Shown: one piece after another, positions 3,054-54,835 of the stretch | Layout of the letters: every line of letters starts with the position of its first letter | Numbering within the stretch: the stretch's first letter is position 1 | Virus record (IMG/VR): IMGVR_UViG_3300045988_150439 | Length of the DNA: 64,000 nt | Source of the DNA: a virus | Taxonomy: Duplodnaviria > Heunggongvirae > Uroviricota > Caudoviricetes | Direction: 5' to 3' (one strand) | The notes under the pieces: generated by a model | Databases searched by the model: none | What the model was told of the DNA's origin: nothing | What the model saw: only the letters and a program-made list of their open reading frames with translations | Position numbers and translations under genes: made by a program

Positions 3054-3159
3054 TTTCAAAAGATACCCACCAGAACAACTCCCTTCCGTTTCCACTTCCA
3101 AAAACTGCCACCAATCGCTATCATCAGCTCATTGTGATAAGTAAGTAACTACCTACCAG

Positions 3160-3909
3160 GTGAGCCACATGAGCCAAATCTTTTTCGACACCATCGACAA
3201 CGACCAGTACGACTTCATGACAGAGTGGAATACCGCTGTTATGGATAAGTGGGTTGCTGAAAACATTGGTTTGTCGCGCTGCAAAGACGAGGCTGAACTC
3301 TTCGATACGAAGTGGTTTGATTACCGCGACATGCATCCTCTTATGGCCACCTGTCTGTTTACGGAGGCATACAAACGTCAGTACTCAAATATCATGCTGA
3401 CGCACGGTCGCGAACACTTTGAAACAGCTCCGTTCACCACCGGGTTAAAACGCCTGCCTTATCAGGAGTTGTCGACTGCCAATAAAACGTCGCTATGGAA
3501 AGCACGCCAGTTTGCTGACCGCTATTGCTGCTCATACGACTACTTTATCTCCACCGTTCTTTCCGCAGCTGCACGACGTCTGTGGGACAAGCTGCCTCGC
3601 CCACAGCATTTGTGGCAGCCAGAACTGATTGAGATATTTGAAGAGAAATTAGCCAGACGCGCAACAACCCGTCTGGATGACTCTCTGGTTAGCTTTAAGC
3701 ATATAGGAGACATGCAGTTCAACCCGATCCAGGAAAGCTATTTTGAGTGGATTCTGGAGCGTTTACGCACCATCCCCCGCAGCAAGCGCATACGCGCAAT
3801 TTTCTCCGCTATCTGGCTAATGGAAATCGTTCCAGAGCGCCTTATTTCCGCCCACTTTCCAGAAGAACTGGAAGAAGCACGGCGGTTTATTGATCCCCTA
3901 TCCAATTAA
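3160..3909 (+). CDS. hypothetical protein
   Basis: 249 aa ORF in the coding strand of the block; GTG at 3160 or ATG at 3169; preceded by a taagta-type palindromic motif at 3135-3158. Confidence 0.45.
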   Translation: MSHMSQIFFDTIDNDQYDFMTEWNTAVMDKWVAENIGLSRCKDEAELFDTKWFDYRDMHPLMATCLFTEAYKRQYSNIMLTHGREHFETAPFTTGLKRLPYQELSTANKTSLWKARQFADRYCCSYDYFISTVLSAAARRLWDKLPRPQHLWQPELIEIFEEKLARRATTRLDDSLVSFKHIGDMQFNPIQESYFEWILERLRTIPRSKRIRAIFSAIWLMEIVPERLISAHFPEELEEARRFIDPLSN

Positions 3910-3952
3910 CTAATACTAGAAAACAATTTGTTTAAAAAACAAAGGAAAGCAC

Positions 3953-5293
3953 ATGACCGAACTTTGCCATACAGGACGCGGGCTGTCCGAAGAGTTTGAT
4001 GAAGATTTCCAGAACAGACTGACGGCATATTTTTGTCGTGATCACGAGTTTCTTACTCGTGCGGGAGATCTGGTTGTGCCTAGCCAATTTGCCAATGCGG
4101 CCAATGCCATATTGGTTAATATGGTTTCGGGCTATTACCGTATGTACAAGAGCGCGCCCTCTTCATCTGCAATTCTGGATATGCTTAAGCGTGCGAAACG
4201 CGATAAGACTATCCGTGAGGAACTATTCGCCGATGTTGTTGCTGCGTTTAAGCGCATCCTTGCAGAAAAATTGTCCGATACCTCGTACATGGTTGACCAG
4301 GTATCAACCTTCGCAAAAAGCGTAGCGTTTGATGATGCTCTGATTAAGGCTGCTGAACTGAAAGAGAAGGGCGACTTTCAGGGGGCGATGGCAATCATGG
4401 CCAAGGTTCAGCAGATTGGATCGAACGAAGCGACCGGAATCTATGACTACTACACCTCAGCAAGTGAGCGACTGAAAGCGCGTGAATATGAGGCCTCAGA
4501 GGAGTATGTGCCAAACAGTATTACAACTGGACTCCCTCTTCTCGATAGGTTGCTGTACCAAAAAGGCTGGGCAAAGCGCGAAATGGTGCTCTTCATGGGG
4601 TTCGCTAAATCCGGTAAATCGACCGCAATGGGTGAGTTTTCCATAAACGCAACGCTTGCTGGCTACAATGTTCTGTATCTCTCGCTGGAGGTTCACACCA
4701 CCATTTTATCCGACCGTTTTGACGCAAGATTGTCGGAGACAGAAATGTCCAAGCTGGTGGAACGGCGCGATGAGGTTCATCGTAAGTTGGCAGAGTTGGG
4801 AGCCACGAAGGGGATTGGTAGTTTGTGGGTGGTTGAGCGTCCGTCAGGAAGTATATCACCGGCAGATCTGGATCGTATGCTCAACAGCATGAAAGCCAAT
4901 GGCATGGTGCCTGACATGGTTGTTGTCGACTACGCAGATTTGATGCGTGCCAGTTATGACCTTCGTGATGATCGCGCCAACATTCGTAGTATCTACACCG
5001 ATTTGCGTGCTCTTTATGACAAGCATAACGTTGCTGGGATCACGGCATCGCAGACAAACCGTGAAGGTGGCGCGTCAGAAGTTGCCACAATGATGCACGC
5101 TGCCGACAACATCGAAAAAGTACGTATTGCTGACCTGGTAATAACGATCAACAAAACCGAAGAAGAAGAAGCGAAAGGAGAGGCTCGTCTCTACTTTGCT
5201 GGTTCACGTAACCAGCAGGGAGGGATCAGCATTCGCGTTAAACAAAACCTCGAACAAATGCGCTTCATTGAGCGAATCTTAGACGTTACCTAA
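3953..5293 (+). CDS. DnaB/gp41-like replicative DNA helicase
   Basis: C-terminal RecA-fold with Walker A GFAKSGKST and Walker B-like MVVVDYADLM; sits directly upstream of a primase-like gene. Confidence 0.6.
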   Translation: MTELCHTGRGLSEEFDEDFQNRLTAYFCRDHEFLTRAGDLVVPSQFANAANAILVNMVSGYYRMYKSAPSSSAILDMLKRAKRDKTIREELFADVVAAFKRILAEKLSDTSYMVDQVSTFAKSVAFDDALIKAAELKEKGDFQGAMAIMAKVQQIGSNEATGIYDYYTSASERLKAREYEASEEYVPNSITTGLPLLDRLLYQKGWAKREMVLFMGFAKSGKSTAMGEFSINATLAGYNVLYLSLEVHTTILSDRFDARLSETEMSKLVERRDEVHRKLAELGATKGIGSLWVVERPSGSISPADLDRMLNSMKANGMVPDMVVVDYADLMRASYDLRDDRANIRSIYTDLRALYDKHNVAGITASQTNREGGASEVATMMHAADNIEKVRIADLVITINKTEEEEAKGEARLYFAGSRNQQGGISIRVKQNLEQMRFIERILDVT

Positions 5294-5302
5294 AAAATAA
5301 GC

Positions 5303-6553
5303 GTGGAGAACACCTCCACGCTTGATTCATTTGTGAAACAACTTTTCTTTTGCCAAACCACAAAAGAAAAACACATGAGCCTTTATGTTATATCAACATT
5401 TAGGTTGGTCACAATATTGCCTATTAAAAGTGGAATTATCGTGAGCGAGCTGAAAGAGCTAATTACCGAATTAGATTTTGAACAATGGTTGGACACTGAA
5501 GGTATCGTTTATCGACGTGGAGGCGTGAGTGCTCGCGGTCGTGAAGTGAATATCAAGGAGTGTCCGGTATGCGGCAGCTCCAACTGGAAGGTATATTTCA
5601 ATCTGACCAGTGGTGTGGGTAAATGTTTCGCTGGCGACCATCCTGAAGAAATACAATTTAATAAGCTGGTGTTCCTCAAGCACTACAGCGGTAAATCACG
5701 GCGACAGTTCGAAGAATATGTGCAGAACGCCCTTCTTTCTCAGGGTTGGGCACCAAAGAAAGAAGAGATAGTGCTTGCAAGCACAGTCGAGTTAGAGGGG
5801 CCACTTGCACTCCCTCGTCATTACGAACTTCCTATAGATGGCCGTCTTCCAGACTATCTGGTTGAACGAAACATATCGCCTGAAATGGCAAAGTATTTTG
5901 ACCTACGATACTGCGTCGAAGGTAAGCACGCCTATGTAGATCCGTATACAGATCAGGTTAAAGGACAGATATTCGATATGCGAATACTGATACCGGTTTA
6001 CGATCTGGATGGGGTAATGAAGACATTTCAGGGACGAGACATTACCGGTACAGCAGAACGCCGCTACCTCTTTCCTATGCAGCTTCCAGCTTCAGGTAAA
6101 TTTCTCTACAACGGCCATAATGCAGTCGGCAAACAGACTGTAGTTGTCTGTGAGGGTGCGTTCGATGTTATGGGGGTCAAACGAGCTATTTTCGACGAAG
6201 AAACATTACGTGATTACGTGGAGCCAATAGGAACGTTCGGGATGCATCTATCTGGCAACACCACTCAGGATGCAGAAGATCAGTTGGGCGCGTTCCTGAC
6301 GCTCAAAGCGCGTGGATTACGTAATGTGATCATGATGTGGGATAGTGAAAAGCAAGCTATACGTAATACGATGGCCGCAGCCAGGCGACTGACCAGTATT
6401 GGTCTTAATGTCAAAGTGGCGTGTTTGGGCGAGGAAGGACTCGACCCGGGCGATGCAACGCCAGAGCAAATCATCAAAGCCTATTATCGGGCAAAACCGT
6501 ATACCAAGCAGTTGGAGTTACAAAGCAAGGTTTTGGGCATTAAGGCTCTATGA
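5303..6553 (+). CDS. DNA primase (zinc-binding plus TOPRIM), putative
   Basis: CPVCGSSNW...GKCFAG cysteine cluster followed by a TOPRIM-like VVVCEGAFDVMG acidic motif; adjacent to the helicase. Confidence 0.5.
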   Translation: MENTSTLDSFVKQLFFCQTTKEKHMSLYVISTFRLVTILPIKSGIIVSELKELITELDFEQWLDTEGIVYRRGGVSARGREVNIKECPVCGSSNWKVYFNLTSGVGKCFAGDHPEEIQFNKLVFLKHYSGKSRRQFEEYVQNALLSQGWAPKKEEIVLASTVELEGPLALPRHYELPIDGRLPDYLVERNISPEMAKYFDLRYCVEGKHAYVDPYTDQVKGQIFDMRILIPVYDLDGVMKTFQGRDITGTAERRYLFPMQLPASGKFLYNGHNAVGKQTVVVCEGAFDVMGVKRAIFDEETLRDYVEPIGTFGMHLSGNTTQDAEDQLGAFLTLKARGLRNVIMMWDSEKQAIRNTMAAARRLTSIGLNVKVACLGEEGLDPGDATPEQIIKAYYRAKPYTKQLELQSKVLGIKAL

Positions 6554-6631
6554 TAACAATCACCTTTAAAATAAGTAGATGATTACTTATCTTTCTGTGA
6601 GAATACTTTCATCTGTTAGCTAGGAGTTGGT

Positions 6632-10076: not shown

Positions 10077-10466
10077 AAACATGGTGATAAGTATTTACTT
10101 ACTTATCTTTTATGTATAAGATGACTTTGTTTTCGTTGAGACGCGACTGTTTGAACTTAAATACAAGTGCAAACGAAGAAGTCTATCTGGCAGTAGCCTA
10201 ATAAGCCAAACACCAGCGAGGTCAGTTTCCAGCCTCGTTACCGAAATGGGACACACTGAGCGAGTGTGATTGCAGAACGCAGGAGGGAACATTCATGTTC
10301 CCTCCGATGAAGTAACAGAATGGGCGGTTGGTATATTTTCAACTCCATATGACTCCCGGATTCTTAGCCACTGACCGCCCATCCTGTTACGTCATTTTGT
10401 TCAATTATGTCGTTTATACTGGGTTAAAAAGCGGCGACGTAGCCCGGCTGGTATGGTTAGCCAGCA

Positions 10467-10588
10467 CACAACGTTGAGGCCATTACATTTTTATCAATTC
10501 TAAGGTTCTATTCACAGAGATACCGGCGAGCGTTGATATGTAACATGTTGGGCAAACATTCAATCGGAGTAGTGGCCTCAACGTTGTG
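10467..10588 (+). repeat. long-range hairpin element (16-bp perfect inverted repeat enclosing about 90 nt)
   Basis: cacaacgttgaggcca at 10467-10482 is the exact reverse complement of 10573-10588. Confidence 0.5.
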
Positions 10589-10854
10589 AAGACGGGATTG
10601 TTGTGTAGGTTTAACCACTGTTGCCATTGGTGCCTGTTTTCACAACAAATGATTCCATACATCACATTGTATAAATTACAAAGTAGGTGCTGTCCTCAGA
10701 AACATCATCTACTTAAAGATTTTGCCTTCTACTATTGAGCGAAGTCGAAAGCGTCTGGCACTAACGAAAAGTGCAAGTAGCGGTGCGTTTCCTGGCAGAA
10801 ACTAAACCGTCGCGATTGGCACTGTTGAGTAATAAATACTGGCAGTGCTGAATT

Positions 10855-10929
10855 GATGGTGTAGCTCAGCGGTAGAGCAGTTGGCTGTTAACCAACTGGT
10901 CGGTGGTTCGAATCCACCCACCATCGCCA
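10855..10929 (+). tRNA. tRNA-Asn (anticodon GTT)
   Basis: Hand-folded cloverleaf: acceptor gatggtg/caccatc, D-arm gctcagcggtagagc, anticodon loop ctGTTaa, T-arm ggtggttcgaatccacc, encoded CCA. Confidence 0.8.
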
Positions 10930-24700: not shown

Positions 24701-24973
24701 AAAGAATTATGGCGCTTGTTGAGGAAGTCACTCCTCTTACGCACTTTGTTTTGCCATGCCGGCAGTTAGCTTCTGCCTTTGACTATTCATGCGGCAACCC
24801 CGCATTTCGCCACAATGGGCAATTCACTTTTATGGAATAAACTGGCCGTTGTGTCGATTTAATTAGCATGGCCTTACCATGCTAATTTATTCAACTTGTA
24901 AAATCCTACAAATCTATCCACTCAGGCTTACACCGTCTTCGTTATTGTAGAAATGAGGATCATCAGCGTTGAA

Positions 24974-25189
24974 TCAGCTTAGAGCAACGACATTTGCTGC
25001 TGCTGGGCCTTTAGCCCCATTCTCGATAGAGAATTCGACCTGCTGGCCTTCTTCCAAAGTGCGGAAATTATTACTCTGAATTGCCGAAAAATGTACAAAA
25101 ACATCTTTACTGCCATCAGCAGGAGAAATAAAGCCAAAGCCTTTATCAGAGTTAAACCATTTTACTAAACCAGTCATTTTATTAGACAT
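24974..25189 (-). CDS. CspA-family cold-shock protein (CspB/CspG/CspI-like)
   Basis: [38 protein letters not shown]... matches E. coli cold-shock proteins almost residue for residue; start taken at the internal ATG (25189) with RBS; long 5' leader upstream. Confidence 0.85.
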
Positions 25190-25518
25190 AGATACTACCT
25201 TCTTAATTTTGTGAGCCACATAGTGCGGCGAGAATTTGATCTGTATAGATTGGGACTTACTTAGGCACTTAAGGAGGAGACTCACGAAGAAGGGAAATCA
25301 GAAGATAACACTGAACTGAGACTGCTTTACTAAAACTGCTTACATAAGGTCTGTCTTGCAAACCAACGATGCTATTAACGCATACCCCTTCTTTTCATGC
25401 AACCTTTATTTTTCAAAGATAACTAATTTTTGTCACCATTGGTTTAGTAAACGTTAACGAACCAGACGATGCCAGACACCTTTACAGAGAACAGATGCCC
25501 GCCAATTGGCGGGCATCA

Positions 25519-36367: not shown

Positions 36368-36376
36368 CCTGTGGAT
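36368..36376. promoter_or_regulatory. DnaA box (tgtggataa) within the origin region
   Basis: Exact match to the reverse complement of TTATCCACA; further 8/9 matches at about 36416, 36512 and 36743; flanked by GATC clusters and an AT-rich stretch. Confidence 0.45.
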
Positions 36377-36538
36377 AAAAATCAGAGGATTTCAAGAACA
36401 GGTAACTCTACTCTTCTGTGGATATTTAAGGACATAAGAATCATGACTAAGAGTAGAGTTTAAAATATATCTATGTATATCAGTATGTTAATGAAGAATT
36501 AAGTCATTAAGTTATCCATAAAAGACAATGTGCTCTAC

Positions 36539-36640
36539 TCTCTACAGTGGATATATACAGCTCTCCAGAGTGGTTGTTTTACTCTTCATAGCGGTTATTC
36601 AGCTCTCTACAGAGGTTTCTTTGCTCTCCATAGTGGATGG
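36539..36640. repeat. origin iterons, set B (about 21-bp phasing)
   Basis: ctctctacagtggatat, ctctccagagtggttg, ctcttcatagcggtta, ctctctacagaggttt, ctctccatagtggatgg; followed by a GATC-rich stretch at 36665-36745. Confidence 0.6.
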
Positions 36641-36838
36641 CAACACCCTTTCAGACCAGTAACCGCAACGGCTAGAGGCGATCGGGGATCTCTTTGGATC
36701 TTCTATTTGATCTTACTTGGGATCTCTTATTTGGATCTATCCAGTGGATAACTGGGATAAGTAAAACAGGCAAATGCAGATTAAGGTATGCCTAATGAGT
36801 TATCGTAGCATCGGCCAATAACTACTGAAAAAACGATT

Positions 36839-53404: not shown

Positions 53405-53659
53405 ATGAACCACTTTAAGGAAACCAACATGTCATACCCGACTAATGTCGTTGCGCTCGTAGAGAGCGATTTTCTGGCTAAGGCTCGTGAAATGATGAAA
53501 GATCGCGAGCAGGCTTTCAACTTGTACGAATGGGCAATTAAGTGCTTGCATCTTGGGGAGCATCGCGAACTTGTTGAACAGCTTTTAGGTGAGTTGATCA
53601 ACGAGGTGTTTGCCTTGAATGTTCAACTACATGGTCGAGAAAATAATCAATCGAAATGA
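53405..53659 (+). CDS. hypothetical small protein
   Basis: 84 aa ORF (alternative ATG at 53429). Confidence 0.35.
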   Translation: MNHFKETNMSYPTNVVALVESDFLAKAREMMKDREQAFNLYEWAIKCLHLGEHRELVEQLLGELINEVFALNVQLHGRENNQSK

Positions 53660-54241
53660 TAGATAAGTACAAACTATTCATAAAATGAATTGTAAGTGCT
53701 AAGATCTGATAGTTTCCAGTCGTAGACTGGAGACTCGACCTGATGGGTGGGGGTAAGCGTCACTGGCGTCAGGTTTAAAAAAGCTCACTACCAGCGTAGA
53801 ACCGGTGCCGTTTAGGTGTCGGGGAAGGGGGAACCAAAGTGAGCGGAGACAAGGGTCACTTTATGATTGTCGAGTCTGGGGTGTTTCGAGAGGTTGAATC
53901 CAGTACTCCCCTTCATAAAGTGTGGGAAGATCTCGGTTCTGGGGTGCTGTCATCCATAACTTCCCAAGTCTAAGCTGGCAGTAGACTTAGACCATAGCTT
54001 TTCAGGTTATGAAACGACCAGGTTGGTGAGGAATTTTATACTCACCTCCCTGGGAGAGTATTACCTGAAAAGACAACCTCTCACTTCGTTCGAGGTGAAC
54101 TTCACTCACTTCGTTCGTTCAGTTCAGGTTTATAAAAACCTGTTCTGGGAAGTAATTTGTTTATTTTAATAATTATTAACACGCACGCGTGTGCGCACGC
54201 GCGAGGAAAAAATCGGCGCGGCGCTTGATTCAGGAGTTTAT

Positions 54242-54835
54242 ATGACGACGAAGACACCAGCCCGATCGCAAGAAAAAACTCGCAAAAAAGCCAAAAACAA
54301 AAATTCTCCCCGCGCCAATTCCACAACGCCTGTCGTAGAGTTCAATCCCCAGCTTAAAACCGTGAAAATCTTCAGTGATGGCTCTTGCCTTAAAAATCCG
54401 GGTGGCCCGGGCGGTTACGGTATAGTTCTCCAGTATCGTGGTGAGGAACGCGAGTTCTCAGATGGTTTTCATAGCACCACCAATAACCGCATGGAGATGA
54501 TGGGGGCACTTATTGGGCTGGAGCGTTTGAAATATCCATGCAACGTTATTTTGCACTCTGATAGCCAGTATCTGAAAAACGGCATGACACAGTGGATGAA
54601 ATGGTGGAAACGCAATGGATGGGTGACTTCTGACAAAAAACCGGTAAAGAATGTTGATCTGTGGAAGCGTCTGGATGAGGCCGCAAGTCGACATAATGTT
54701 CGCTGGAAGTGGGTTAAAGGTCACGCCGGGCATCGTGAAAATGAAATATGTGATCGACTCGCGAAGATCGCAGCTTTTTCCGCAGCAGATATGCCTCACA
54801 AGAAAGATATTGGTTTTGTTTACAACAAGCAGTAA
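54242..54835 (+). CDS. rnhA: ribonuclease HI
   Basis: [55 protein letters not shown] and [13 protein letters not shown] closely match E. coli RNase HI; start set at the ATG with aggag RBS (track ORF begins at 54191). Confidence 0.85.

Follow-up and report, generated by a model that had tools for sequence, protein, structure and literature searches.

Introduction

Large, intricately folded RNAs are uncommon, and most of the known examples (ROOL, GOLLD and OLE) occur in organisms that are hard to manipulate and are without a known function. ROOL and GOLLD, whose structures have been solved by cryo-EM (PMC12286853), come from Firmicutes or from rumen and lake metagenomes, and are typically found in the neighbourhood of tRNA genes. 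Here we describe an RNA, termed class A, which resembles them in having a large, multi-helix, pseudoknotted fold that is supported by covariation and borne by phages; the likeness is one of resemblance and not of homology. In contrast to ROOL and GOLLD, the class A RNA belongs to phage-plasmids of the Enterobacteriaceae and is expressed in lysogeny.

The RNA lies in a 64,000-nucleotide stretch of viral DNA (the window), which is an SSU5/pHCM2-type phage-plasmid; 12 phage records, including SSU5, Cyrano and PhiR41_1, match a 1.3-kb query around the locus. Its hosts include E. coli, Klebsiella and Salmonella, among them the pHCM2-type plasmids of S. Typhi. We conclude that the locus is very likely a non-coding RNA gene on the plus strand, and that its product is a genuine large structured RNA, apparently not described before, which widespread phage-plasmids of enterobacteria carry.

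Results

A gap without sizeable ORFs upstream of rnhA

The gap at 53660-54241 separates the stop codon of a small gene (53659) from the ATG of rnhA at 54242. It sits in a long plus-strand array that comprises nrdAB, thyA, DHFR, an AAA ATPase, a DnaQ-like exonuclease, a Dam methylase and the small gene, and that continues 3′ of the gap with rnhA, TerB/TciA and DUF3927. The RepB replication initiator is encoded ~17 kb away. An earlier note, made from the letters of this DNA, had proposed a structured RNA or a regulatory region here because the gap is comparatively GC-rich and has no sizeable plus-strand ORF. Both observations hold: the plus-strand ORFs inside the gap are only 30, 44, 30 and 48 aa long, and the GC content is 0.51 at 53700-53999 compared with 0.38–0.45 in the flanks. 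The GC skew over the same interval is +0.34, giving a G-rich RNA strand. The sole ORF of more than 60 aa is on the minus strand (74 aa, 54102-54326) and overlaps the start of rnhA. The gap had also been called unusual. It is kept as an unannotated gap of 495–860 bp at the same position in every relative inspected, but it is not unique, as the window has a second ORF-poor structured gap at 10077-10855. The main features of the locus are as follows (window coordinates).

53429..53659, plus strand: gene for a 76-aa acidic three-helix protein (phrog_5343), directly upstream of the RNA
53677..53705, plus strand: predicted sigma-70 promoter, with −35 TTCATA (53677-82), a 17-nt spacer and extended −10 TGcTAAGAT (53697-705)
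53712..54152 (ends approximate), plus strand: class A large structured RNA, ~440 nt, from conservation, fold z-score, covariation, the G-U/A-C balance and Cyrano RNA-seq
54242..54835, plus strand: rnhA, RNase HI with a basic N-terminal extension (Pfam RNase_H, 1.7e-44; phrog_531)

The true start of the upstream gene is probably Met 53429, as its homologues show, giving the 76-aa product. This gene adjoins the large RNA gap in all the loci fetched, these loci having been found via the protein. The protein has no Pfam family, and its AlphaFold model (pLDDT 77, three helices) gave no PDB fold match at E ≤ 0.001; a Rop-like identity was rejected on the same two grounds. Its net charge is about −4 and, being acidic, it is no obvious RNA binder. 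Since it also lacks a recognisable fold, a direct partnership between the protein and the RNA is hypothetical.

Conservation and distribution of the class A RNA

Diverged homologues were gathered via relatives of the 76-aa protein, and their contigs were then fetched. In a 13-sequence alignment, pairwise identity in the core (53731-54148) was 0.86–0.995, above the 0.77–0.90 of the flanking protein genes, and fell to 0.5–0.6 at 53673-53730 and to 0.63–0.76 at 54149-54240. By blastn, identity was 88–92% for the gap alone compared with 77.6–82.5% for the gap plus genes (88% and 77.6%, respectively, for the Klebsiella relatives). Cyrano is 97% identical to the window in this region.

A profile of the core used with nhmmer recovered the element in 193 of 207 loci, down to ~40% identity, and there are 96 unique class A sequences. 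Of 5426 complete E. coli genomes, 232 (~4%) contain the RNA, as do 687 PLSDB plasmids; the 1.3-kb query matched 686 PLSDB plasmids, with Klebsiella, Escherichia, Enterobacter, Salmonella, Citrobacter and Cronobacter as hosts. A scan of species-dereplicated genomes added only two loci, both from Kluyvera, and a DNA-pattern scan of IMG/VR returned no contigs beyond those already found. The diversity of class A is confined to the phage-plasmids of the Enterobacteriaceae.

None of the 4227 models of Rfam 15, which include ROOL, GOLLD, OLE, RNase P, tmRNA, 6S, group I and II introns and RNAI, matched the gap at the gathering threshold. At E ≤ 10 the hits over the gap were at chance level, the best being an HCV stem-loop with 21 bits where 56 are needed, and ten diverged relatives gave nothing relevant at E ≤ 0.1. 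A tRNA/tmRNA scan found neither in the gap, and a literature search aimed at prior descriptions of the class A RNA found none. On these comparisons the RNA could not be assigned to any known family or functional class. A ToxI-like type III toxin-antitoxin RNA was considered and rejected, as there is no tandem array (TRF reports 0 arrays of tandem repeats or iterons in the gap) and the sole duplication is a 13-nt motif spaced by 25 nt.

A covarying, pseudoknotted fold

The plus strand folds at −202.7 kcal/mol (z −6.3) and the minus strand at −168.6 kcal/mol (z −6.65), with 0 of 100 shuffles as good in each case. The RNA was assigned to the plus strand because G-U cells outnumber A-C cells (134 and 43, respectively, in the alignment; 7 and 0 in the window itself). 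For 13 lineages RNAalifold returned 68 pairs, 33 of them with a compensatory change.

A 15-helix model (P2, P2a, P4-P12, P14, PK1 and PK2) was built by hand and scored on a MAFFT alignment (A2) of 13 lineages that was not fitted to the structure. In the model 88.2% of cells are paired, compared with 34.6–53.1% when the partners are slid by 1–3 columns. Changes on both sides were seen for 49 pairs and 116 cells, compared with 13–26 pairs and 19–36 cells in the slid controls, and 0 of 500 shuffles reached any of the five model measures. Scoring of shift-fitted helices against decoys was uninformative for helices shorter than 7 bp, and the PK2 and P2a helices rest on invariant columns. The comparative model shows at least 14 helices and a long-range pseudoknot in the class A RNA. 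The elements are listed from 5′ to 3′.

53713..53733, plus strand: P1, 5′ hairpin ending at the invariant CUCG (53734-37), from lineage comparison
53737..53775, plus strand: P2/P2a, 53737-49 with 53761-75, enclosing the invariant GGGUGGNGG and CUGG, from covariation
53783..53844, plus strand: P4, GCUCAC (53783-88) with GUGAGC (53839-44), from covarying variants; inside it, on the same strand, the invariant ACCAGCG (53790-96) and the variable hairpin P5 (53802-22)
53857..53922, plus strand: arm of P6 (53857-66 with 53913-22) and P7 (53872-79 with 53900-08)
53888-96, plus strand: P7 loop GAGAGGUUG, the 5′ strand of pseudoknot PK1
53923..53992, plus strand: P8 (53923-29 with 53960-66) enclosing P9 (53942-55), and P10 (53968-74 with 53986-92) with loop UGGCAGUA
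53998..54072, plus strand: P11, a long helix (53998-54010 with 54060-72) enclosing P12 (54018-30 with 54041-53)
54074..54082, plus strand: 3′ strand of PK1, CAACCUCUC, pairing with 53888-96, 180 nt upstream
54077..54121, plus strand: twin hairpins P13 and P14, each with a (C)UCACUUCGUUCG loop (the duplicated motif)
54125..54149, plus strand: variable hairpin P15 (54125-42) and the invariant 3′ CUGGG (54145-49)
54153..54227, plus strand: AT-rich linker (54153-78) of variable length, then a GC-rich alternating tract with CGCGCGAGG(A)n

Several of these elements had been picked out by the earlier note. The two hairpins that it named, ccagtc-gta-gactgg (53716-53730) and ggtgag...ctcacc (54025-54046), are present and are true helices of the fold (P1 and P12b). 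Its duplicated motif, CTCACTTCGTTCG, is found at 54080-92 and 54105-17, where it forms the loops of two adjacent hairpins. Its alternating purine-pyrimidine tract is at 54179-54202, outside the conserved core. Covariation, which it had suggested as a check, bears out the fold through compensatory changes across the 13 lineages.

The sequence of P1 is wholly different in each lineage and always forms a perfect hairpin (GCUUCCGGA/UCCGGAAGC, GCUGGCAGAU/AUCUGCCAGC, GUCUGGC/GCCAGAC or GUCAGUU/AACUGAC). For P2/P2a (helix 1), 98.8% of cells are paired and 8 of 13 pairs have changed on both sides. P4 occurs as GCCCAC/GUGGGC, GCUAC/GUAGC, CCUG/CAGG, GCCG/CGGC and CGCG/CGCG, and two lineages (L088 and L138) have extra hairpins inserted in the P4/P5 region. 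P6 retains 9–10 of its 10 pairs despite different sequences in L134, L135 and Buttiauxella, and P7 switches from CUGG/CCAG to CCAGAC/GUCUGG, its place being taken by a GAAA tetraloop in L138. All cells of P8 (helix 9) and P10 (helix 11) are paired, with four covarying pairs in the former and seven of seven in the latter. In P11 of L090 a C and a G are lost together, one nucleotide from each of the opposite strands, and in L135 CUGG/CCAG replaces the CAGG/CCUG of the window.

The pseudoknot PK1 has all nine pairs in four sequence versions: GAGAGGUUG/CAACCUCUC, GAGAGGUGU/ACACCUCUC, UGAGAGUUU/AAACUCUCA and UGGGUUUUG/CAAAACCCA. The two-loop layout of P13 and P14 is retained in all lineages, and the stems of P14 covary (GAAC/GUUC, GAAAC/GUUUC, GGGAA/UUCCC, CAAACC/GGUUUG and AGAGC/GCUCU). 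P15 is missing from L090, L134 and L135. The invariant 3′ CUGGG possibly pairs with CCAG at 53791-94 as PK2 (helix 4), which is invariant in 13 of 13 lineages. Two sets of helices are mutually exclusive: P11 competes with a local hairpin, CAUAGC/GUUAUG (53993-54011), and the 5′ strand of P13 overlaps PK1. The invariant unpaired nucleotides comprise CUCG, GGGUGGNGG, ACCAGCG, GAGAnAAGG, UUGUCGA, GAUCUCGGUUCUGGGG, the twin CACUUCGUUCG loops and the 3′ CUGGG.

Three other pairings were rejected. A long-range 5′ CUCGAC/GUCGAG pairing fails as a main helix because its GAGU pairs locally with ACUC in P7 and because L138 has a GUC-GAAA-GAC tetraloop hairpin. At the variable position a CGCUGG/CCAGCG pairing fits 5 of 13 sequences, compared with 12 of 13 for P2a. 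Pairing of the P10-loop CUGG with ACCAGCG is contradicted by L088 and L138, where this CUGG is not conserved.

The tract at 54179-54227 lies 35–60 nt downstream of the RNA core. Among the class A lineages only L138 lacks its CGCGCGAGG, which is retained whether or not rnhA follows. The tract could serve as a protein site, or as an element of the 3′ end or a terminator.

Promoter and transcript

The predicted promoter would place the start of transcription near 53712. Its TGnTAnnAT motif is found 7–9 nt upstream of P1 in all class A lineages, within surrounding sequence that is 50–60% conserved, and the promoter overlaps an imperfect palindrome.

A stable transcript, which the earlier note had named as a check on a structured RNA, exists for the Cyrano homologue. 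RNA-seq has been published for E. coli LF82 carrying Cyrano, as counts per annotated ORF in ten samples (PMC9928086 S1 Table). The log2(fpkm+5) values were 6.8–10.35 for CYRAN_81, which lies inside the RNA, 3.1–5.8 for CYRAN_80, the upstream small gene, and 2.6–5.0 for CYRAN_82, which is rnhA (PMC9928086 S1 Table). By these per-ORF counts, the CYRAN_81 region is 12–40 times more abundant than either neighbour in lysogens. In overnight LB the level was 117 for CYRAN_81 compared with 9.5 and 8.4 for its neighbours, and levels peaked at 6 h inside macrophages (PMC9928086 Table 1 and S1 Table). The published data show that in Cyrano the class A RNA accumulates as a discrete lysogen transcript, the ends and strand of which are predicted.

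CYRAN_81 is annotated as a 44-aa ‘hypothetical protein’ (OV696614.1 78657-78791, L208:2680-2814; equivalent to 53839-53973 in the window). Of 22 representatives, 8 have a frameshift or a stop in this frame, and five more have lost its start or stop codon. Indels of 1–3 nt or stop codons break it in the lineages of Klebsiella, Buttiauxella, Concord, pSTM_Phi and L090, and L135 and L134 lack its start or stop. The three codon positions account for 17, 11 and 12 variable sites, respectively, with no third-position bias. No conserved ORF was found within the RNA among the 22 representatives, and there is no PGAP annotation beneath it in the 232 E. coli genomes. The CYRAN_81 call is therefore very probably an annotation artefact, and no normal protein gene occupies the gap in the relatives. 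Class A is unannotated everywhere or mis-annotated as a hypothetical protein, a recurrent annotation error.

A second RNA in the same slot, and other elements of the window

In a sister clade (L091, L137, L139 and L198-L206), in which the small protein is ~50% identical, the same slot holds a different conserved, structured RNA of ~450 nt, termed class B. It shows no similarity to class A by nhmmer. RNAalifold gave 123 pairs, 10 with a compensatory change. Class B begins with a 5′ hairpin and a U-run and ends in an intrinsic terminator that precedes rnhA, and its 3′ helix CCUAAC/GUUAGG covers the Shine-Dalgarno sequence of rnhA. In L091 two RNase H genes follow the RNA. The class B loci are:

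L139:3266-3715
L137:446-895
L198 and L201-L206
L091:3226-3760

The second ORF-poor gap of the window (10077-10855, plus strand) lies directly upstream of tRNA-Asn/Thr/Ser and has a fold z-score of −6.78. At its start are a promoter-like site and TAAGTATTTACTTACTTA, a perfect palindrome. Two motifs of the class A RNA, CUGGCAGUAG and ACACCAGCG, recur in it, and it is 74–80% conserved in Klebsiella and Enterobacter relatives. No Rfam match was found in it. This gap is a candidate for a further large non-coding RNA in a ROOL/GOLLD-like tRNA neighbourhood.

A palindrome, TAAGTA-N(2-6)-TACTTA, recurs at gene boundaries. It is exact at 6572, 10088 and 19659 of the window and has one mismatch at 3138, 7447, 27068, 31859, 37603, 50110, 54833 and 59812; at two mismatches the count is not above chance. 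The palindrome is also found in L088, L138 and L139; its positions in relatives include the rnhA stop codon and the point directly behind the small gene. It has the look of a recurrent intergenic element of these phage-plasmids, similar to a promoter or operator. Elsewhere in the window, 24949-25367 (minus strand) gives a full-length match of 184 bits to the Rfam cspA thermoregulator, at a cold-shock protein gene with its 5′ UTR. Four DnaA-box-like sites, one of them exact, lie within ~400 bp at 36370-36751, near the position of the RepB initiator in the closely related plasmid NZ_CP126951.1; this cluster is probably the plasmid oriV.

The gene downstream of the RNA is not constant

The usual downstream neighbour of the RNA is rnhA. 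It is absent or replaced in five lineages (L093, L134, L135, L136 and L138), in which the RNA is intact. A Tad2-like gene follows the RNA in L134 (4098-4412) and L136 (3939-4244), and a gene for an uncharacterised 200-aa protein follows it in L135. In L138 rnhA is simply missing and phrog_10411 comes next. In Buttiauxella (L093) the RNA faces a convergent pair of Gabija-like genes (OLD-TOPRIM and UvrD helicase; 3895-6231, minus strand), and there is no plus-strand gene for more than 2.5 kb. In L012 a betT insertion replaces everything 3′ of the core, which is itself intact. The proposal that the gap is a regulatory region for rnhA is therefore unsupported for the core, since the core is kept where rnhA is absent. 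The structured-RNA reading of the earlier note has strong support: the sequence is more conserved than the genes on either side, the helices covary, the promoter is conserved, and published RNA-seq contains a discrete, abundant transcript.

Accessory genes recur at the site immediately 3′ of the RNA, a hot spot with Gabija-like genes in Buttiauxella and genes of the Tad2-like, anti-Thoeris family in other lineages.

The variation in the downstream gene makes either a leader or an RNase H-dependent primer role unlikely. Were the RNA a cis-acting leader, it would act as an attenuator, a riboswitch-like element or a processive-antitermination element of very large size, controlling read-through into, or translation of, the downstream genes. 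A mostly terminated leader would account for the excess of reads over the RNA relative to rnhA. The conserved mutually exclusive pairings would fit a switch and leave room for a conformational or cis-regulatory role. In class B, moreover, a helix lies over the rnhA Shine-Dalgarno sequence and a terminator precedes the gene, and in the window the ribosome-binding site of rnhA has a possible pairing partner at 54131-42. That last pairing, however, is not conserved in SSU5-type relatives, and no canonical terminator follows the class A core. The core outlasts both the loss of the same-strand association in L093 and the betT insertion, and 440 nt with a pseudoknot is far above the size of known leaders. 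We consider a leader unlikely.

A replication primer or R-loop RNA, similar to ColE1 RNA II, would form a hybrid with its template close to the AT-rich tract, and cleavage by the adjacent RNase HI would then yield the primer for lytic or plasmid DNA synthesis. The position directly upstream of rnhA in most lineages of both classes would suit such a role, as would the surrounding replication and nucleotide-metabolism genes, the size, which is close to that of RNA II, and the G-rich RNA strand with an AT-rich stretch and then a conserved GC-rich tract behind it. Against this, the RNA is kept in the five lineages without rnhA, and neither the length nor the sequence of the AT-rich tract is constant. 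Iterons are absent from the gap, and no DnaA boxes were found in 53660-54241 with up to one mismatch; the DnaA-box-like sites lie at ~36.4–36.8 kb and RepB is ~17 kb off. Rfam gave no RNAI/RNA II-type match. A consensus scan, which is weak evidence, showed no RNA I-like antisense promoter over the 5′ part, its sole promoter-like site on the minus strand (53718 to 53689) being directed away from the RNA. The invariant unpaired nucleotides and the pseudoknot also imply selection on a three-dimensional fold, which a primer would not need. A primer role is thus improbable.

We regard it as very doubtful that the gap acts at the DNA level, for instance as an origin, as a site for packaging or through clustered protein-binding sites, and is transcribed only incidentally. 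The palindrome at the start of the gap, the TAAGTA..TACTTA palindromes at gene boundaries and the purine-pyrimidine tract near rnhA could be read in this way. However, compensatory changes keep the pairing, including G-U pairs that are A-C mismatches on the other strand, there are no repeats, and the transcript is discrete and abundant. That the gap encodes one or more small proteins, such as the 44-aa ORF at 53839-53973, which is annotated in OV696614 and was listed as a protein ‘moron’ by the authors of the RNA-seq study (PMC9928086), is scarcely credible given that the frame is broken in several lineages and shows no bias at third codon positions.

Discussion

We judge it probable that the class A RNA is an independently transcribed molecule of ~440 nt acting in trans as a folded particle, either RNA or RNP. 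For the trans-acting particle as a mechanism we put the chances at about even, and infer it because selection acts on a three-dimensional architecture with many invariant unpaired nucleotides, because the RNA persists where another gene, or one on the opposite strand, lies downstream, and because the unrelated class B RNA, of similar size, fills the same slot. Such a particle would be analogous to ROOL/GOLLD; antisense regulation and leader or primer roles would not be involved. As a working guess, it may bind or sequester a protein, from the host or the phage, that serves nucleic-acid metabolism or defence while the plasmid state is maintained; this guess is prompted by the position of the slot in a variable accessory stretch with Tad2-like and Gabija genes. 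The presence of rnhA beside the RNA in most lineages of both classes could reflect a functional link.

More tentatively, SSU5/pHCM2-type phage-plasmids may hold a slot for interchangeable large ornate RNAs (class A, class B and possibly a third near the tRNA genes), which would act as self-contained RNA machines, whether catalytic, ligand-binding or self-assembling, in lysogeny.

Comparison with known systems

The immunity RNAs of phage-plasmids and satellites (the C4 RNA of P1/P7, the CI RNA of P4 and the CB RNA of N15) are likewise non-coding, made in lysogeny and present as type-specific variants. They are antisense regulators of 70–200 nt with known complementary targets, whereas the class A RNA is far larger and more complex; no antisense targets of its conserved loops were found within the 64-kb window.

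RNA II of ColE1 is similar in being a structured transcript of ~0.5 kb with alternative foldings, and the class A RNA is like it in lying beside an RNase HI gene in a replicon with a plasmid state. The class A RNA differs in having no homology to RNA II, in showing no RNA I-like antisense partner in the consensus scan, and in being kept without rnhA, and the phage-plasmid has its own RepB-type replicon elsewhere. To our knowledge, RNA II has no counterpart of the pseudoknotted, covarying architecture.

The likeness to ROOL and GOLLD is in a length of several hundred nucleotides, many helices, pseudoknots, invariant unpaired positions and carriage by temperate phages. It extends to the occurrence of unrelated RNAs in equivalent genomic contexts, represented here by class A and class B in one slot, and to the tRNA genes that follow the gap at 10077-10855. 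The class A RNA matches neither model and, at ~440 nt, is shorter than the ~580 and ~800 nt of ROOL and GOLLD, respectively. Because class A is found in E. coli and is visible in public RNA-seq, a large phage RNA becomes testable by standard E. coli genetics. If the slot reading is true, these phage-plasmids would provide an enterobacterial, genetically tractable counterpart of ROOL, GOLLD and OLE.
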